Assembly: GCA_041677685.1 (NCBI GenBank) | Contig: JBAYPN010000024.1 | Location: 1 to 10,697 of the forward strand | Source of the DNA: an archaeon | GTDB lineage: Archaea > Iainarchaeota > Iainarchaeia > Iainarchaeales > CSSED10-239 | Direction of reading: 5' to 3' | DNA: 10,697 nt | Shown here: piece after piece, positions 139 to 6,473 of the stretch | Layout: the number at the start of each line of letters is the position of its first letter | Position numbering within the stretch: the first letter of the stretch is position 1 | Notes under the pieces: model-generated | The model's database searches: none | What the model was told of the DNA's origin: nothing | The model's input: only the letters and a program-made list of their open reading frames with translations | Position numbers and translations under genes: made by a program

Positions 139-3003
139 ATGTATGACTTTATATCTTCTGAAAAGAAATGGCAAGATAAATGGAATGACCTAAAAGTAGG
201 TGAAGTTAATTATGATTCTTCTAAACCTAAATTTTTTTTAATTTGGGCATATTTAACTGTATCTGGTTTTCACCATGTGGGGCATATGAGAGGCTATTCT
301 TATGCTGATGCTATCTGCAGATATAAAAGAATGAATGGATATAATGTTTTACTTCCTGCTGGAGGGCATGCAACAGGAAATGGAACAATCTCAAAAGCTT
401 ATAATGTTAGAAGTAAAGATCCTCAAACAATAGAATATTATAAAGAATTAGGTTTAAATGAAAAAGATCTAGAGAAGATTTCTACACCTTTTGGCTTTAT
501 TAATTTTTTTAAAAATATTTATATTAAAGATTATAAGTCATATGGTTTTATTGGAGACTGGAGAAGATTTGTAGTTACAACTGATAAAGAATATAATAAA
601 TTTATAGAATGGCAATTTAAAAAATTAAAACAGAAAGATTTACTTGTACAAAAACCATACTTTGCAACAGCTTGTGTTGAGTGCGGACCAGTGGCAGTTG
701 ATCCTTCTGAGATGGATCTAAAAAAAGGTGGGAATGCACAAAAGAATGAGTATACAATTTTAAAATTAAAATTTGAAAAGGATAACCAATATGTTGTTGT
801 TGCAACACTTAGACCAGAAACTATTTTTGGACAAACAAATATTTGGTTAGATTATAATGTAACTTACACAAAATTAAAAGTAGGAGAGGAAGTCTGGATT
901 GCCTCTAAAGAATTTGCAGAAAAACTAAAATATCAAAAAGAAAATATTGAAATATTAGATGAGATAAAAGGAAAAGATTTGGTTGGTAAGTATGTTACTC
1001 CACCAATAATTAATAGAGAAATAATAATTTTGCCATCTGAGTTTTGTGATCCAAACATCGGTACAGGAATTGTAACCTCTGTTCCCTCTGATGCCCCTAT
1101 TGATTGGATTGGATTATTTGATCTACAAAGATCAAAAGAATTAACAGAAAAGTATGGTTTAGATTTTGAAGAATTAAAAAAAATAGAACCAATTGCAATT
1201 ATTAATTCAAAAGGGTTTGGTAAATTTCCAGCAATTGAAATCTGCAAGAAATATAATATTAATTCTCAAAAGGATATTGAGAAATTAGAGGAAGCAAAAA
1301 AAGAAGTTTATAAAAAAGGTTTTCATACTGGTGTGATGCTTGAAAATGCAGGAAAATATTCAAACTTAAAAGTTGAACAAGCAAAAGAGGAAATTAGAAA
1401 TGATTTGATTAAAAGTAATTTAGCAGATATTTTTTATGATCTTTCAGAAGAAGTTGTTTGTAGGTGTGGTAAACAAGTTGTTATTAAAAAAATAGATAAT
1501 CAATGGTTTATTAAATATTCAGACAAAGAACTAACTAATAACACAATTTCACATATTAAAGATATGCTGCTTCTTCCTGAACAATATAAAAAAAACTTAC
1601 CAAACATTCTTAATTGGTTTGATGACAGAGCTTGTGCTAGACAAGGTAATTGGTTGGGAACAAAATTTCCTTTTGATAAAACTTACACTATTGAACCAAT
1701 CTCTGATAGTACTCTTTACCCAATATTCTATCTTGTATCTTTGTATATTAACCAAGGAATAGTTAAAGAAGAACAATTAACAGAAAATTTCTTTGATTTT
1801 GTTTATCTTGGTCTTGGAGATTCTGAAATTATTTCTAAGGAAATAAGTTTAGATATTAAGTTACTGTTGCAGATTAGAAAGGATGTAGAGTATTGGTATC
1901 CTTTAGACATCAATCTTGGTGGACAGGACCATTTAACAGTGCACTTCCCTGTGTTTCTAATGAATCATGTAGCTTTGTTACCTAAAAAGTACTGGCCAAA
2001 GGGCATAATCGTTAACTGGTGGGTTATAAACAAATCAGGTAAAATATCTAAGTCTAAGGGTGGAGTTAGAAGTATTGGGCAAGAAGCAAAAACCTACTCT
2101 GTTGATGCTATTAGATTGTTTTATTCAAATATTGCGTCTCCATTTGTAAATATTGATTTTCCTGAAGAGGATTTAATAAAGTATAAGCAAAGATTGGAAA
2201 AAATATATTATTTTATTGTAGACTTAGAAAATAATTTTAAATTATTAGAAATAAAAAACCTAAATAATATAGATAGATGGTTAGAATCAAAATTTAATCA
2301 AAGACTTAAAAATATTATTGGTTCTATGGATAAGATTGAATTTAAGGAAGCAACAGATGATATTTATTTTAATATCTATAATGATTTACATTGGTATCTT
2401 AGAAGAGGTGGAAACAATAAAACACTTTTAAAAGAAATTATTAAGAAATGGACTTTAAGTTTTGGTTTATTTACTCCACATATTGCTGAAGAGCTTAATG
2501 AAGTTTTAGGCAATCAAGAGTTAGTTTCAACATCTGTTTTCCCTAAGGTTAATGATTCTAAGATAGATGAAAGTTTAGATACTAATGAAAAAAATATTGA
2601 AAATATTTCCTCAGAAATTAGAACTGTTTTAAAGATGGCAAATATTGAAAAACCAAAGACAATTAAGATAATTGTTTCTAAGTCTTGGAAATATGATTTT
2701 TATAAGGATCTAAAATCAGAGCTAGAGGTTACACGAAATGTTGGACAAATAATTTCTACTTTAATGTCTAAATATTTAGATTATAAATCTGAAATTGGAA
2801 AGATAGTTCCTAAGTTATTAAAGCAACCAAGCCTATTAGAAAACATTACTTCTCAAGAACTTGATTTAAAATTTTTTAAAGAAATTCTTCTCTTTTTAGA
2901 ATCTGAATTTTCAACAAAAATGGAGATTTATAAAGCAGAAAATTTCAATGATCTAAAATCAGAGACTGCCTCTCCAGCAAAGCCAGGAATAATTGTTGAA
3001 TAG
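139..3003 (+). CDS. leuS: Leucyl-tRNA synthetase, archaeal/eukaryal-cytosolic type (class Ia aaRS with CP1 editing domain)
   Basis: 954-aa uninterrupted ORF.
- N-terminus EKKWQDKW is typical of LeuRS.
- HIGH motif is present as HVGH (aa 46-49, nt 274-285).
- GGHATGNG follows the first motif (the archaeal H-x-TG pattern), not the bacterial GWDAFGLPAE.
- CP1/editing signatures TLRPETIFGQTNIW and GTGIVTSVPSDAPIDW are present.
- KMSKS motif is present as KISKSKG (from nt 2041).
- The length matches archaeal LeuRS (about 950-970 aa). Confidence 0.95.
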   Translation: MYDFISSEKKWQDKWNDLKVGEVNYDSSKPKFFLIWAYLTVSGFHHVGHMRGYSYADAICRYKRMNGYNVLLPAGGHATGNGTISKAYNVRSKDPQTIEYYKELGLNEKDLEKISTPFGFINFFKNIYIKDYKSYGFIGDWRRFVVTTDKEYNKFIEWQFKKLKQKDLLVQKPYFATACVECGPVAVDPSEMDLKKGGNAQKNEYTILKLKFEKDNQYVVVATLRPETIFGQTNIWLDYNVTYTKLKVGEEVWIASKEFAEKLKYQKENIEILDEIKGKDLVGKYVTPPIINREIIILPSEFCDPNIGTGIVTSVPSDAPIDWIGLFDLQRSKELTEKYGLDFEELKKIEPIAIINSKGFGKFPAIEICKKYNINSQKDIEKLEEAKKEVYKKGFHTGVMLENAGKYSNLKVEQAKEEIRNDLIKSNLADIFYDLSEEVVCRCGKQVVIKKIDNQWFIKYSDKELTNNTISHIKDMLLLPEQYKKNLPNILNWFDDRACARQGNWLGTKFPFDKTYTIEPISDSTLYPIFYLVSLYINQGIVKEEQLTENFFDFVYLGLGDSEIISKEISLDIKLLLQIRKDVEYWYPLDINLGGQDHLTVHFPVFLMNHVALLPKKYWPKGIIVNWWVINKSGKISKSKGGVRSIGQEAKTYSVDAIRLFYSNIASPFVNIDFPEEDLIKYKQRLEKIYYFIVDLENNFKLLEIKNLNNIDRWLESKFNQRLKNIIGSMDKIEFKEATDDIYFNIYNDLHWYLRRGGNNKTLLKEIIKKWTLSFGLFTPHIAEELNEVLGNQELVSTSVFPKVNDSKIDESLDTNEKNIENISSEIRTVLKMANIEKPKTIKIIVSKSWKYDFYKDLKSELEVTRNVGQIISTLMSKYLDYKSEIGKIVPKLLKQPSLLENITSQELDLKFFKEILLFLESEFSTKMEIYKAENFNDLKSETASPAKPGIIVE

Positions 3004-3030: not shown

Positions 3031-4443
3031 GTGAAAAACATGCCTTGTAGGAAAATATATACTAAATTAATTGCAGAATACACTTCTGAAATTAATAAAG
3101 CTTTTAATTTATCTTGTAAACTATATAATAATAAAAAAATATTTGGCAATATTGATAAGATTGATTATGTTTTAAATATTTCTAGAAATTTAACTGATTA
3201 TGACGAAGAAATAATAATTGCAGGTCTATTGTATAATCCTTATTTAGAAAGCATAAATCTTAAACATCATTGTTTTAATAAAAATGTAAGAAAGATATGT
3301 AAAGATATTTATTTTATAAATTTTTTTAGTTTACTTAACAATTACAATATTTCTGAAGAAGAAATTAAAGAATATATTATTCAGCCTTTTTATAAAATTG
3401 AATCTGTATTAATTGTTTTTGGAGAAGTTATAACTATCTTAGATTATTTAGATAAAATTAAAGATCAAAAATATAAAAAAAGATTTTTAAATATTGTAGA
3501 AAAGTCAATTATTCCTCTTGCTTACCAATTAGGTGTTTATAACATAAAAGATAAAATTTTAAATAAATTAATTGAGATTAAATATCCAAAGAAATTTTTA
3601 AATATTAAAAAATATTTAGAAAAGAATTTTCCAAAAAATAACCTGGAAATATTTAAAGAGATTATTATTGATTATTTAAAATCGCGTAGTCTAAAACCTT
3701 TATTTTATGAATATAGGTATAAGAGTGCAGGTAGTTTTTATCAAAAGGTATATGTTAATAGATTAGTTGCCATTGATAATATTACTGATGTTTATGCTTT
3801 ACGATTAATTTTTGAAACTAAAAAGGATTGTTATAAAGCACTTAATTTAATAAAGAATAATTTTCTACTATATAATTCAAGAATTACAGATATGATTAAA
3901 AATCCTAAGAAGAATGGTTATCAATCAATTCATTTAAGATTAAATATTAATGGTTATCCTGTAGAGGTACAGATTAGAACTGCAGAGATGCATAATAATG
4001 CAATTTACGGAGTTTCTTCTCATTTCCATTACAAGAATATTTATGAATTATCTTTAAAAGAATCAAAAATTTTAGATTATTTAAAAAGCGAAACCTCTTT
4101 AAGTGTAAATAAATCTTCTGATTATAAAGACTACATTACTGTTTTTACAACAACCAATCAAAAAATTGTAGTTCCTAAAAAAGCAACAATTTTTGATTTT
4201 GCTTTTTATTTGCATACTACTTTTGTAATGTATTTTGATTATGCAATTGTTAATGGTGTGGCTATTAGAAATAAAAATTGTTTGTTAAAAAATGGAGATG
4301 AGATTACAATTGTTAGATCAAGAAAAATAACTTTAGAGGCAGATGATAGAAAATATTTGTTTGTTAATAAGAACAAAAAACAATTTAATTTAGTTTTAAA
4401 TAAAGTTGATAGGCTTTTAAGTGAACAAAATATTGTTGATTAA
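3031..4443 (+). CDS. RelA/SpoT-homologue (RSH): degenerate HD pseudo-hydrolase region + (p)ppGpp-synthetase-type nucleotidyltransferase domain + TGS domain, with the C-terminal regulatory half absent
   Basis: 470-aa ORF.
- Synthetase core (about aa 225-335, nt 3703-4035) carries YRYKSAGSFYQKV (the R-x-K...S-x-Y-x-K ATP-binding strand), DVYALRLIF, RITDMIKNPKKNGYQSIH (compare RxKD-YIA-PK-NGYQSLH), VEVQIRTAEMH and GVSSHFHYK (compare G-AAHW-YK).
- The linker IPLAYQLGVYNIKDKILN resembles APLAhRLGi..iKwELED.
- TGS domain (about aa 367-430, nt 4129-4320): ITVFTTTNQKIVVPKKATIFDFAFYLHTTF...AIVNG...LKNGDEITIV.
- The HD region is degenerate. LLYN (nt 3226-3237) replaces LLHD, and YVLNIS replaces HP-x-x-VA.
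- The tracked start is GTG at 3031. An in-frame ATG at 3040 is an alternative. Confidence 0.85.
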   Translation: MKNMPCRKIYTKLIAEYTSEINKAFNLSCKLYNNKKIFGNIDKIDYVLNISRNLTDYDEEIIIAGLLYNPYLESINLKHHCFNKNVRKICKDIYFINFFSLLNNYNISEEEIKEYIIQPFYKIESVLIVFGEVITILDYLDKIKDQKYKKRFLNIVEKSIIPLAYQLGVYNIKDKILNKLIEIKYPKKFLNIKKYLEKNFPKNNLEIFKEIIIDYLKSRSLKPLFYEYRYKSAGSFYQKVYVNRLVAIDNITDVYALRLIFETKKDCYKALNLIKNNFLLYNSRITDMIKNPKKNGYQSIHLRLNINGYPVEVQIRTAEMHNNAIYGVSSHFHYKNIYELSLKESKILDYLKSETSLSVNKSSDYKDYITVFTTTNQKIVVPKKATIFDFAFYLHTTFVMYFDYAIVNGVAIRNKNCLLKNGDEITIVRSRKITLEADDRKYLFVNKNKKQFNLVLNKVDRLLSEQNIVD

Positions 4444-4481: not shown

Positions 4482-5621
4482 TTAATTTAATTGAACCCAA
4501 CTTCCATTTTTGTATTCATATATTTTGTTTGTGTTTTGTAAGACTCTATCTTTAAAACCAGTATTACCATTAACAGTTACATGTCCTTTCACATTTTCTA
4601 AAGAATTAACTAAACATTCTGTATCTTTTGGTTTACAATTTTCCATAGCTTTTGAAATAATCATCACATGATCATATCCTTCTGCTGCATATGCATATTC
4701 TGTGTGACTTAAATTTGTTTTATTTATAAAAGTCTCATATTTTTTTGCAAATTCTGAATTGTCAATATCTATTCCCTTAAAATCAATAGTTAATGTATTT
4801 TCTAAAGATTCTTTTGTTACATTTTCAAAAACATTTTTTGGAAATATTTCTGAAGTTGTTGCTGCCATAACTTTTATTGGGTAATCATATTTTTGCAATT
4901 GATTAAATAAATTTACAAAATGATAATCAAAACCAAGAACAAATATTGTATCAATATTTTTTTGATTTGCTCTTAAAAGAATTGTCTTATAATTTTTTTC
5001 CTCAACACCATACCAAAATTCTTCAACATTAGGTTCTACTTTTTTAATACCTTCAAAACATTCTTCTGAAAAACCAATTTGTGGGAATACAATTGCCAAC
5101 TTTTCATATTTGTTATTTTCTTTTGCAAATCTTGTTAGTTCTTCACAACCTGATGATGAATCAAAATCTGTTTTGAAAATAATATTACTTTGATCTTTTA
5201 TACTTCTCACATATGCTTCATAAATTAAAGGTATATTATTTTGAATTGCAATTGGTGCTATTGCTTCTGCTGGTGGTTGAAATAATGTGACTAGTATATC
5301 TATGTTTTGTGTGTTAATTAGAAAGTTTGCAGCATTTGCACTTTCAGCTCCATTTATTTTTCCATCTTCAATTACTAAGTTTAAATTTTGTCCATTTATT
5401 CCGCCATTTTCATTAATTTCTTTTGTTGCTATTTCCATTCCGCTTGCCATCGCTAAACCTATTTGTGAACCAACACCACTTAATGGCGACACTAATCCAA
5501 TTGTGTACTCTTGATCTTTTATATCTTTATTTTTATTAATATTAGTAAATACTAACAACAAAATTAAAATTGATATTATTACTATGATTGTTCCTAATAA
5601 TATTTTCTTTTTCATAAACAT
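4482..5621 (-). CDS. Membrane-anchored solute-binding protein, type-I periplasmic-binding-protein fold (Leu/Ile/Val-binding LivJ/LivK-like family)
   Basis: 379-aa ORF.
- The N-terminus KKKILLGTIIVIISILILLLVF is a signal/anchor helix with no lipobox Cys.
- The mature part begins YTIGLVSPLSGVGSQIGLAMASGMEIATKEINENGGINGQNLNLVIEDGK...AANFLINTQNIDILV, the characteristic opening of branched-chain-amino-acid-type binding proteins.
- On the - strand the start region reads AAGGAG-ATG-TTT-ATG. The Shine-Dalgarno-like GGAG abuts the tracked ATG (5621) and sits 6 nt before the second ATG (5615), so 5615 is the more likely true start. Confidence 0.85.
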   Translation of the reverse strand: MFMKKKILLGTIIVIISILILLLVFTNINKNKDIKDQEYTIGLVSPLSGVGSQIGLAMASGMEIATKEINENGGINGQNLNLVIEDGKINGAESANAANFLINTQNIDILVTLFQPPAEAIAPIAIQNNIPLIYEAYVRSIKDQSNIIFKTDFDSSSGCEELTRFAKENNKYEKLAIVFPQIGFSEECFEGIKKVEPNVEEFWYGVEEKNYKTILLRANQKNIDTIFVLGFDYHFVNLFNQLQKYDYPIKVMAATTSEIFPKNVFENVTKESLENTLTIDFKGIDIDNSEFAKKYETFINKTNLSHTEYAYAAEGYDHVMIISKAMENCKPKDTECLVNSLENVKGHVTVNGNTGFKDRVLQNTNKIYEYKNGSWVQLN

Positions 5622-5694
5622 CTCCTTATTTAATTTCTTAACTTTTGCAAGTTATACAGAATTTATATTTTCGAAACTATTTAAAATATAACTA

Positions 5695-5710
5695 CTACTA
5701 AATATAGTAG
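5695..5710. promoter_or_regulatory. Inverted repeat CTACTA-AATA-TAGTAG (TACT-N6-AGTA) in the divergent binding-protein/TrmB promoter region; candidate TrmB operator
   Basis: 6-bp perfect arms with a 4-nt spacer, read directly. It lies 32-47 nt upstream of the TrmB-family ATG (5742), between AT-rich TATA-like tracts (TTAAAATATA 5681-5690 and AATAAATATATAAA 5714-5727). The half-sites resemble the TACT/AGTA half-sites that I recall for Pyrococcus TrmB. Confidence 0.3.
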
Positions 5711-5741
5711 GTAATAAATATATAAACAAGAGGCAACAAAT

Positions 5742-6473
5742 ATGGATGTGGAACAATTAACAGAACTTCAAGAGTTAGGTTTTACAAAACCAGAAATTAA
5801 AGTGTATACTACTCTTTTAGAACTAAATGAATCAAAGACAGGAAAACTTTGCTTTTTAACAAAAATTCCAAATTCTAGAATTTATTCAATTTTAGATTCT
5901 TTAATTGATAAAGGTTTAGTTAGTTATAAAATTACAAATAAAATAAAAGTGTATATGCCAGCACCTCCTGAGATTTTAAAATCTATTTTAGATGAAAAAC
6001 ATAAAAAAATATTGTCTGCAGTAAAATTATTACAAGAAAAGAAAACAAAAGTCTCTAATTTTCAATATAAGACATTTAATAATGTCAAGGGTATTAGGTC
6101 TATGTTTTTAGAAATAAATAATGTGATGAATAAGAATTTAGTTTTAAGTTATTATACTTCTGCAAAAGGAAGTTATGAGAGATTGATGGGGATTTTTAAT
6201 GAACATCATGATCTTAAAATTTCAAAAAAGATAAAAAGTAGAATATTAATATCTAATGAAAATAAAGATCTTGGTGAGAGAAGAAAAAATAAATATACAG
6301 AAGTAAAATACATCTCTATTGATAGTTCTGCAGAATGGGGTGTGATTGGAGATAAGATGTTATTTATTTTTTATATTATGGGAGATGACCCAAAAGGAAT
6401 ATTAATTGAGGATCAAGTAATTGCAAATACTTTTAAAAAAACCTTTGAAAAGATTTGGGATAAAACTAAATAA
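5742..6473 (+). CDS. TrmB-family winged-helix transcriptional regulator (short, TrmBL-like; no recognisable full sugar-binding domain)
   Basis: 243-aa ORF. The N-terminal region LQELGFTKPEIKVYTTLLELNESKTGKLCFLTKIPNSRIYSILDSLIDKGLVSYK matches the TrmB wHTH pattern (LGLT--EA-VY--LL--G--TA-EIA-----R--VY--L--L--KGLV). A GAGG Shine-Dalgarno-like element (AAGAGG, 5728-5733) lies 8 nt upstream of the ATG. Confidence 0.8.
   Translation: MDVEQLTELQELGFTKPEIKVYTTLLELNESKTGKLCFLTKIPNSRIYSILDSLIDKGLVSYKITNKIKVYMPAPPEILKSILDEKHKKILSAVKLLQEKKTKVSNFQYKTFNNVKGIRSMFLEINNVMNKNLVLSYYTSAKGSYERLMGIFNEHHDLKISKKIKSRILISNENKDLGERRKNKYTEVKYISIDSSAEWGVIGDKMLFIFYIMGDDPKGILIEDQVIANTFKKTFEKIWDKTK

Follow-up and report, generated by a model that had tools for sequence, protein, structure and literature searches.

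The contig JBAYPN010000024.1 of an Iainarchaeota archaeon (assembly GCA_041677685.1), analysed here over a window of 10,697 nucleotides, carried a truncated RelA/SpoT homologue (RSH) gene next to a leucyl-tRNA synthetase (LeuRS) gene. The encoded protein combined a hydrolase-like domain stripped of its catalytic residues (pseudo-HD), an intact synthetase domain (SYNTH) and a TGS domain. Judging from these features, we considered it probable, though well short of certain, that the protein was a monofunctional (p)ppGpp synthetase, an [hS]-type derivative of a long RSH belonging to Forterrea-related Iainarchaeota, which would work off the ribosome and whose TGS domain might sense tRNA.

The open reading frame began with a GTG codon at position 3031 and encoded 470 amino acids (aa); an alternative ATG start at 3040 would give 467 aa, and a database protein 99% identical to the window RSH (P0001) begins at this ATG. 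Several profile searches had been proposed in the initial annotation of the window, a reading made from the letters alone. Pfam RelA_SpoT (PF04607) matched residues 229-336 (E 3.9e-28, 98.4 bits against a cutoff of 27) and Pfam TGS (PF02824) matched residues 369-428 (E 2.3e-7, 31.2 bits against a cutoff of 22.2), which confirmed the TGS domain claimed there, but neither Pfam HD_4 nor Pfam HD matched the protein even at E 0.1. The HD homology of the N-terminus rested on profile alignment to PDB sequences and on the predicted fold. The NCBIfam model TIGR00691 (spoT_relA) aligned residues 57-459 to model positions 36-452 of 687 with 166 bits, below its cutoff of 499. Since this match stopped at model position 452, the protein covered only the N-terminal two-thirds of a long RSH.

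The chain ended about 40 aa past the TGS domain. Its tail, with predicted helices at 437-442 and 446-465, corresponded in B. subtilis Rel to the opening helix of the helical domain, the alignment reaching Rel residue 482. Neither ACT_4 nor any other C-terminal Pfam domain was matched in the protein, and the zinc-finger domain (ZFD) and the ACT/RRM domain of a complete long-RSH C-terminal region were absent. The initial annotation was therefore right that the protein stopped shortly after TGS and lacked the helical, zinc-finger and ACT/RRM domains, of which only the first helix of the helical domain was retained. Moreover, the gene on the 3' side was convergent, and thus a split-off C-terminal part was not separately encoded there.

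The catalytic state was assessed with a profile of the 12 closest sequences (alignment A1) aligned to solved Rel, RelA and SpoT structures. It matched B. subtilis Rel (6yxa) with E 2.5e-39, pairing protein residues 11-457 with Rel residues 18-482, and also aligned to S. equisimilis Rel (1vj7), E. coli RelA and others. The B. subtilis Rel numbering was carried onto alignments of 121 and 198 sequences. The ten synthetase residues checked (R241, K243, K251, D264, R269, Y308, H312, E324, Q326 and R328 in Rel numbering) were all kept in the window protein and in every member of its clade. In the numbering of the window protein the synthetase set comprised R229, K231, S235, K239, D253, R258, Y297, H301, E312, Q314 and R316; eight of these (R229, K231, K239, R258, Y297, H301, E312 and Q314) were invariant columns in 121/121 homologues, and Y297 was the counterpart of the guanine-stacking Y308. 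The synthetase motifs named in the initial annotation all stood at their expected places, namely R229-x-K231, S235..K239, D253..R258, NGYQSIH at 295-301, EVQIRT at 312-317 and HFHYK at 331-335. A misalignment of the catalytic residues, which that annotation had listed among the ways its reading could fail, was not found, given the profile alignment to Rel and the retention of these residues in clade members. The RXKD/EXDD specificity motif was atypical: it read RITD in the window and [KTLQ]-[VI]-[RNS]-D in the clade.

By contrast with the synthetase, all eight hydrolase sites checked were changed (R44 to I, H53 to Y, H77 to Y, D78 to N, E81 to L, D82 to E, D144 to E and N148 to I), in agreement with the replacements noticed earlier in the motifs YVLNIS (46-51) and LLYNPY (66-71). 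These residues were replaced in every clade member, and thus a bifunctional enzyme of the Rel/SpoT kind was not indicated. The pseudo-HD domain carried clade-invariant motifs of its own (YDE, YNPY and RKIxKDxYFxNF). In the TGS domain, H395 corresponded to H420 of B. subtilis Rel and H432 of E. coli RelA, and it lay within a conserved D389-F390-A391...H395 motif; across RSHs in the 121-homologue alignment, D-F-A...H was at least 90% conserved. In Rel and RelA this histidine makes a stacking contact with the CCA 3' end of deacylated tRNA, and its change to Glu abolishes activation (PMC7797070).

A structure prediction, also suggested at the outset, placed the protein among the long RSHs. The AlphaFold2 model, built with the 121-sequence alignment, had a mean pLDDT of 89.9 and a pTM of 0.87, and its pseudo-HD region was all-helical at high pLDDT. 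When this model was searched against the PDB with Foldseek, the best match was B. subtilis Rel (6yxa, E 1.8e-22), other top matches included ribosome-bound RelA (5iqr) and full-length SpoT (7qpr), and all Rel N-terminal crystal structures were matched with TM-scores (normalised to the target) of 0.73-0.80 over about 340 columns. Structures of small alarmone synthetases (SAS) were matched only at E of about 1e-6. According to the model, the N-terminal 200 residues are a true pseudo-hydrolase domain in which the HD fold was kept and the HD chemistry was gone.

Selection was estimated by comparing the window with an 80%-identical orthologue on a related contig (L065), where dS ranged from 0.54 to 0.71 across five genes. 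The dN/dS values (Table 1) placed the RSH gene under purifying selection in every domain, including the pseudo-HD. Taken together, this constraint and the clade-invariant motifs showed that the pseudo-HD was kept for a function and was not decaying.

The initial annotation had described the protein as a synthetase-only, RelA-like enzyme. The first part of this description stood as a prediction from the residues, but the second held only in a functional sense: the proteobacterial RelA equivalog NF008124 gave 95 bits against a cutoff of 728, and the protein was not an orthologue of RelA. The YjbM (SAS) equivalog gave 21 bits against a cutoff of 320.

In a collection of 5.8 billion proteins, the clade of the window RSH comprised 11 clusters at 90% identity, all of 455-467 aa, and the next matches beyond it were separated by a gap from E 1e-123 to 1e-30. 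Only two or three clade representatives were present in a library clustered at 50% identity. On these matches we take the clade to be a narrow lineage. A first neighbour-joining (NJ) tree of 196 sequences, many of them of unknown taxonomy, put the clade among long-branch sequences, and this placement was set aside as long-branch attraction. It was replaced with an NJ tree of sequences of known taxonomy with 200 bootstraps, which was distance-based and is to be read as indicative only. There, the clade together with P0124 was monophyletic in 200/200 replicates, and its sister group consisted of Iainarchaeota RSHs of about 610 aa (L006, L007 and L009), recovered in 140/200 replicates with the full alignment and in 165/200 with SYNTH plus TGS. 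The RSHs of the candidate phyla radiation (CPR; Patescibacteria) came next, and those of Woesearchaeota, Nanoarchaeota and Pacearchaeota branched elsewhere. Because the sister proteins still had ACT and a weak HD_4 match, the truncation appears to have arisen inside Iainarchaeota. The tree was indicative of an old bacterial (CPR-like) source of the Iainarchaeota RSH, followed within the phylum by loss first of the HD chemistry and later of the C-terminal domains. Within the clade, the gene was vertically inherited.

In the mechanism that we propose, the protein would move pyrophosphate from ATP to the 3'-OH of GDP or GTP, as RSHs do. Without the autoinhibitory and ribosome-docking C-terminal domains it would act off the ribosome, its exposed TGS domain plus the following helix would bind deacylated tRNA at its free 3' CCA end, and this binding would tune synthesis to the charging state of tRNA. 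The pseudo-HD would assist SYNTH structurally or allosterically, as in RelA, and degradation of the product would depend on some other enzyme. In bacteria, activation involves docking of the helical, ZFD and RRM domains on the ribosome, where TGS reads the A-site tRNA. Since these docking parts were missing, the window RSH would be unable to use the bacterial mode. Sensing of tRNA charging through TGS was plausible given that the CCA-stacking histidine was conserved and that isolated TGS-helical fragments have been reported to bind deacylated tRNA specifically, off the ribosome (PMC7797070). N-terminal-only RelA still binds pppGpp and is activated by it (PMC7797070). In a bolder version of the proposal, which we regarded as less likely than not, the protein would be a natural minimal stringent factor of archaea: independent of the ribosome, it would turn on (p)ppGpp synthesis when its TGS domain detects the free CCA end of uncharged tRNA. 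It might be functionally coupled to LeuRS, and a non-RSH or host enzyme would act as the hydrolase.

Several observations weighed against an off-ribosome, tRNA-sensing synthetase. Full-length B. subtilis Rel binds tRNA largely non-specifically when off the ribosome (PMC7797070), and therefore specific CCA sensing by the window RSH was not guaranteed. The TGS domain of the window protein was divergent, with 31 bits where other RSHs score 60-80. We found no partner enzyme that would hydrolyse (p)ppGpp, although the genomes bearing the clade were not scanned whole. The adjacency to LeuRS may be inherited synteny only, and the sister RSH of 610 aa was located in a different neighbourhood: in L007 its flanking genes encoded a CBS-domain and a KaiC-like protein, and a gene for a class II aminoacyl-tRNA synthetase (aaRS) was one gene away. 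Finally, none of the DPANN RSHs has been characterised, and we found no paper on their domain architecture or catalytic state.

The chief rival explanation was a (p)ppGpp synthetase that is constitutive or controlled by expression, with its basal rate set through transcription (possibly together with LeuRS) or through product feedback, and with TGS as a structural remnant that senses nothing. We regarded this as a serious candidate but a doubtful one. The 1-455 fragment of RelA is the classical constitutively active RelA construct. The window RSH matches this very fragment, which has synthetic activity, the C-terminal domain being regulatory (PMC7669825), and both the gap of only 27-36 nt to LeuRS and the weak TGS score would fit the same picture. 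On the other hand, TGS was under purifying selection (dN/dS 0.19) and retained D-F-A...H, a motif conserved to at least 90% in RSHs generally. The minimal forms from CPR bacteria drop the HD region yet always keep SYNTH plus TGS, suggesting that TGS is functionally required, and one study found the activity of N-terminal-only RelA to be no higher than that of full-length RelA. An enzyme with another acceptor, as in some toxic SAS (toxSAS), seemed improbable. It would either make (pp)pApp from adenine nucleotides or pyrophosphorylate the 3' CCA of tRNA, with TGS delivering the tRNA; the binding of tRNA 3' ends by TGS, the absence of ribosome-docking domains and the atypical RXKD/EXDD motif would all accord with it. 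However, the full long-RSH motif set was kept, including NGYQSIH with Y297, the clade grouped with long RSHs and not with SAS structures (Foldseek E 1e-22 versus 1e-6), and the gene had no antitoxin-like neighbour but stood in a housekeeping block.

The degenerate HD, the loss of the C-terminal domains and a TIGR00691 score far under the cutoff could also be explained if a bacterial gene, acquired by horizontal transfer, survived here as a relic that is decaying or no longer catalytic. We judged this very improbable because dN/dS was 0.18, the catalytic residues were invariant in orthologues only 48-54% identical to the window protein, and length and synteny were conserved in at least eight loci. 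The probability that the contig was bacterial (CPR) or a chimeric assembly, making the archaeal context an artefact, was negligible. The nearest relatives outside Iainarchaeota were indeed CPR proteins, but an archaeal 23S rRNA, LeuRS, TrmB and YchF-related GTPase stood in the same window, and the artefact was refuted by an identical gene order in five independent assemblies of Iainarchaeota, one of them a curated complete genome. Among these explanations, the off-ribosome synthetase with a possible tRNA-sensing TGS domain was retained.

The closest characterised relatives were the bifunctional Rel proteins (B. subtilis 6yxa and S. equisimilis 1vj7), which gave the best match in both sequence and structure. 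In them, too, an HD fold and SYNTH precede TGS and the beginning of the helical domain, and their synthetase catalytic residues and TGS histidine were identical to those of the window RSH. In contrast, the latter had no hydrolase residues, no ZFD and no ACT/RRM, retained one helix of the helical domain, was about 23% identical and resided in an archaeal host. E. coli RelA ([hS]) resembled it in the dead HD, the live SYNTH and the TGS domain with CCA-stacking H432, and the window RSH corresponded to its 1-455 N-terminal fragment. However, E. coli RelA is a beta/gamma-proteobacterial paralogue and not an orthologue, the HD loss in the clade was independent and occurred within Iainarchaeota, and activation of RelA needs the C-terminal domains, the ribosome and A-site tRNA. 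The SAS (RelQ and RelP) and toxSAS enzymes share the SYNTH fold and catalytic residues and are ribosome-independent. They differ in being single-domain proteins, compared to three domains in the window RSH, and in their distance in the Foldseek search (about 1e-6 versus 1e-22). Unlike a toxSAS, the window RSH was outside any toxin-antitoxin-like operon and had LeuRS and housekeeping neighbours in all loci.

Truncated RSHs of 360-530 aa that likewise end directly after TGS were common in CPR bacteria. Most of them (P0012, P0014, L008, L010 and L013) differ from the window RSH in having an intact and probably active HD and thus looking bifunctional, in their bacterial host and in being only 25-30% identical. 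P0155 had no detectable HD, like the window RSH; it and L033 (7596-9005, Moraniibacteriota) were 452-469 aa long with a pseudo-HD, and in L033 the TGS had no Pfam match and its conserved histidine was Y. Three proteins (P0076, P0110 and, from Peregrinibacteria, P0119) were missing the whole HD region and consisted of SYNTH plus TGS only, in 364-378 aa.

Longer RSHs of about 610-650 aa were found in Iainarchaeota and other DPANN archaea (L006, L007:7632-9470, L009:7329-9155, L014:7971-9866, L016, L048 and L050:4712-6667). Like the window RSH, they had a partly or fully degenerate HD and an intact synthetase; they differed by keeping the C-terminal ACT/RRM and a detectable HD_4, and by their genomic neighbourhood. 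In the Iainarchaeota forms D78 was E and D144 was S. In long RSHs of Woesearchaeota, Nanoarchaeota and Pacearchaeota, H53, H77 and D78 were replaced and the synthetase residues were intact. Loss of hydrolase chemistry thus seems to be recurrent in DPANN RSHs.

A mirror-image group of archaeal RSHs of 481-487 aa was also observed (L058:1029-2477, L059:7899-9344, L063:10001-11452 and L064:9469-10932), under the NCBI name 'HD domain-containing protein [archaeon]'. Here the HD residues were intact, the TGS histidine was replaced and the synthetase was degenerate (R241 to E/K, R269 to N/I, H312 to Q, E324 to K and Q326 to R), so that these proteins resemble a hydrolase-only, SpoT-like form. In L063 and L064 the gene was divergent next to hisG, hisI, hisA/F and the histidyl-tRNA synthetase gene. 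The group (L058 and L059) was considered as a source of the missing hydrolase partner and rejected, since its members came from other metagenome-assembled genomes (JAFCCL01, CAZMUN01 and JBAZQI01) and not from clade-bearing genomes. DPANN RSHs appear to have repeatedly split into synthetase-only and hydrolase-only forms, in parallel to the RelA/SpoT split in Proteobacteria.

According to the 2011 census of RSH proteins (Atkinson et al.), there were no long RSHs in archaea (PMC3153485). In a genomic survey of DPANN from 2021, RelA/SpoT genes, for which a bacterial origin was predicted, were present in 69% of Diapherotrites, 41.7% of Woesearchaeota, 21.3% of Pacearchaeota and 19% of Nanoarchaeota (PMC8407392). 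The statement in the initial annotation that archaea have only sporadic RSH genes was therefore out of date for DPANN. The RSHs of 610-650 aa were presumably the 'RelA/SpoT' genes counted in that survey. In the supplements of a preprint with a toxSAS/RSH census we found no archaeal terms, and the Forterrea genome paper mentions neither ppGpp nor RelA. The presence of RelA/SpoT in DPANN is already known, and the new part is the archaeal, LeuRS-linked form with only pseudo-HD, SYNTH and TGS. The earlier DPANN reports and the CPR look-alikes reduce its novelty.

Six protein genes lay in the window (Table 1), together with a 23S rRNA gene of which the 5' two-thirds were included and for which the archaeal model was the best match. 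A scan for orthologues over one genome per GTDB species yielded five genomes with RSH orthologues 50-54% identical to the window protein, all from Iainarchaeota (Diapherotrites, DPANN) and one of them the curated complete genome of Candidatus Forterrea multitransposorum (CP045477). In 5/5 genomes the gene order was LeuRS, RSH, a variable part, the YchF-like GTPase on the opposite strand, orf124 and 23S, and the same order was found on three further metagenome contigs. Identities of the window to these five loci (L001-L005) were 64-68% for the LeuRS protein, 73-78% for the GTPase protein and 85-89% for the 23S at the nucleotide level. Given the archaeal 23S, LeuRS, TrmB and GTPase and the same order in independent Iainarchaeota assemblies, chimerism and a CPR or other bacterial origin were excluded, which settled the doubt raised in the initial annotation about the taxonomy and integrity of the contig.

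Table 1. Features of the window, with positions counted from its first letter, and dN/dS relative to the orthologous locus on L065
Feature	Positions	Strand	Basis or description	dN/dS
Archaeal-type leucyl-tRNA synthetase gene	139..3003	+	TIGR00395 leuS_arch, 807 bits vs cutoff 648	0.09
Truncated RelA/SpoT homologue gene (whole)	3031..4443	+	pseudo-HD, SYNTH, TGS, short helical tail	0.18
Pseudo-hydrolase (HD-fold) domain	3052..3630	+	residues ~8-200; alignment to 6yxa/1vj7 HD and predicted fold	0.21
Synthetase (SYNTH) domain	3631..4050	+	residues ~201-340; Pfam RelA_SpoT	0.11
TGS domain	4135..4314	+	residues 369-428; Pfam TGS	0.19
C-terminal tail	4321..4440	+	residues 431-470; start of helical domain	0.30
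LivJ-like substrate-binding protein gene (Peripla_BP_6)	4482..5621	-	domain match; N-terminal hydrophobic anchor	0.21
TrmB-family archaeal transcriptional regulator gene	5742..6473	+	Pfam TrmB, E 9e-15	0.27
YchF-related (Obg-like) GTPase gene, C-terminal TGS	6477..7679	-	NF007171, 509 bits vs cutoff 387	0.06
orf124, small protein without family match	7879..8253	+	N-terminal hydrophobic segment, Cys-rich C-terminal half	
Archaeal 23S rRNA gene, 5' two-thirds, runs off the window	8618..10697	+	Rfam LSU_rRNA_archaea, 1679 bits	

The LeuRS and RSH genes were on the same strand with a gap of 27-36 nt, and their adjacency was kept in 8/8 related loci; co-transcription is plausible. Adjacency to an aaRS gene was also considered as a general theme of RSHs and, though suggestive, was dropped, being indistinguishable from chance in small genomes full of translation genes. 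The GTPase gene was convergent with the RSH gene and belonged to the conserved syntenic block. Two proteins with TGS domains (the RSH and the YchF-related GTPase) and LeuRS were thus encoded within about 7.5 kb, a grouping that probably reflects no more than the clustering of translation genes. Between the RSH and GTPase genes, the LivJ-like and TrmB genes (4482-6473) formed a lineage-specific insertion that was present only in the window and L065 (5177-7162) and absent from L001-L005, L066 and L067. No ABC permease or ATPase genes were found near the LivJ-like gene, which therefore encoded an orphan binding protein adjoining LeuRS and the RSH. The orf124 protein was 44-52% identical and located at the same place, just upstream of 23S, in 5/5 Iainarchaeota genomes (L001-L005). 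There was no 16S upstream of 23S (window 8254-10697), and the gene preceding 23S encoded this small protein, indicating that the rRNA genes are unlinked. The arrangement was conserved in all related Iainarchaeota loci (L001-L005 and L066); in L066 (14460-18023) an rRNA-sized gap was followed by a second class I aaRS gene.

The base composition of the RSH gene had been described as matching that of its neighbours. This was true at third codon positions, where its GC content (GC3) was 0.12 within a range of 0.12-0.18 for the neighbours, but its overall GC of 21% was the lowest in the window, with the other protein genes at 25-31%. The low value came from the first and second codon positions and reflects a protein with much Lys, Asn, Ile and Tyr. 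The view that any transfer of the gene was old agreed with the conserved synteny, the purifying selection, the matching GC3 and the sister group in the same phylum.

These results touch the question of whether archaea use (p)ppGpp at all. The window RSH, at only 467 aa, is a compact candidate, well defined and clearly constrained, which lends itself to direct expression and assay; if it is active, alarmone synthesis exists in archaea with genomes of about 0.8 Mb. Its natural set of pseudo-HD, SYNTH and TGS offers a test of whether TGS alone couples tRNA charging to synthesis off the ribosome, a matter debated for bacterial Rel and RelA. If the bolder version of the proposal holds, ultra-small DPANN archaea would have a working alarmone response, and for the first time there would be evidence that Archaea have a functional (p)ppGpp synthetase of their own and that an RSH can sense tRNA in the absence of the ribosome.

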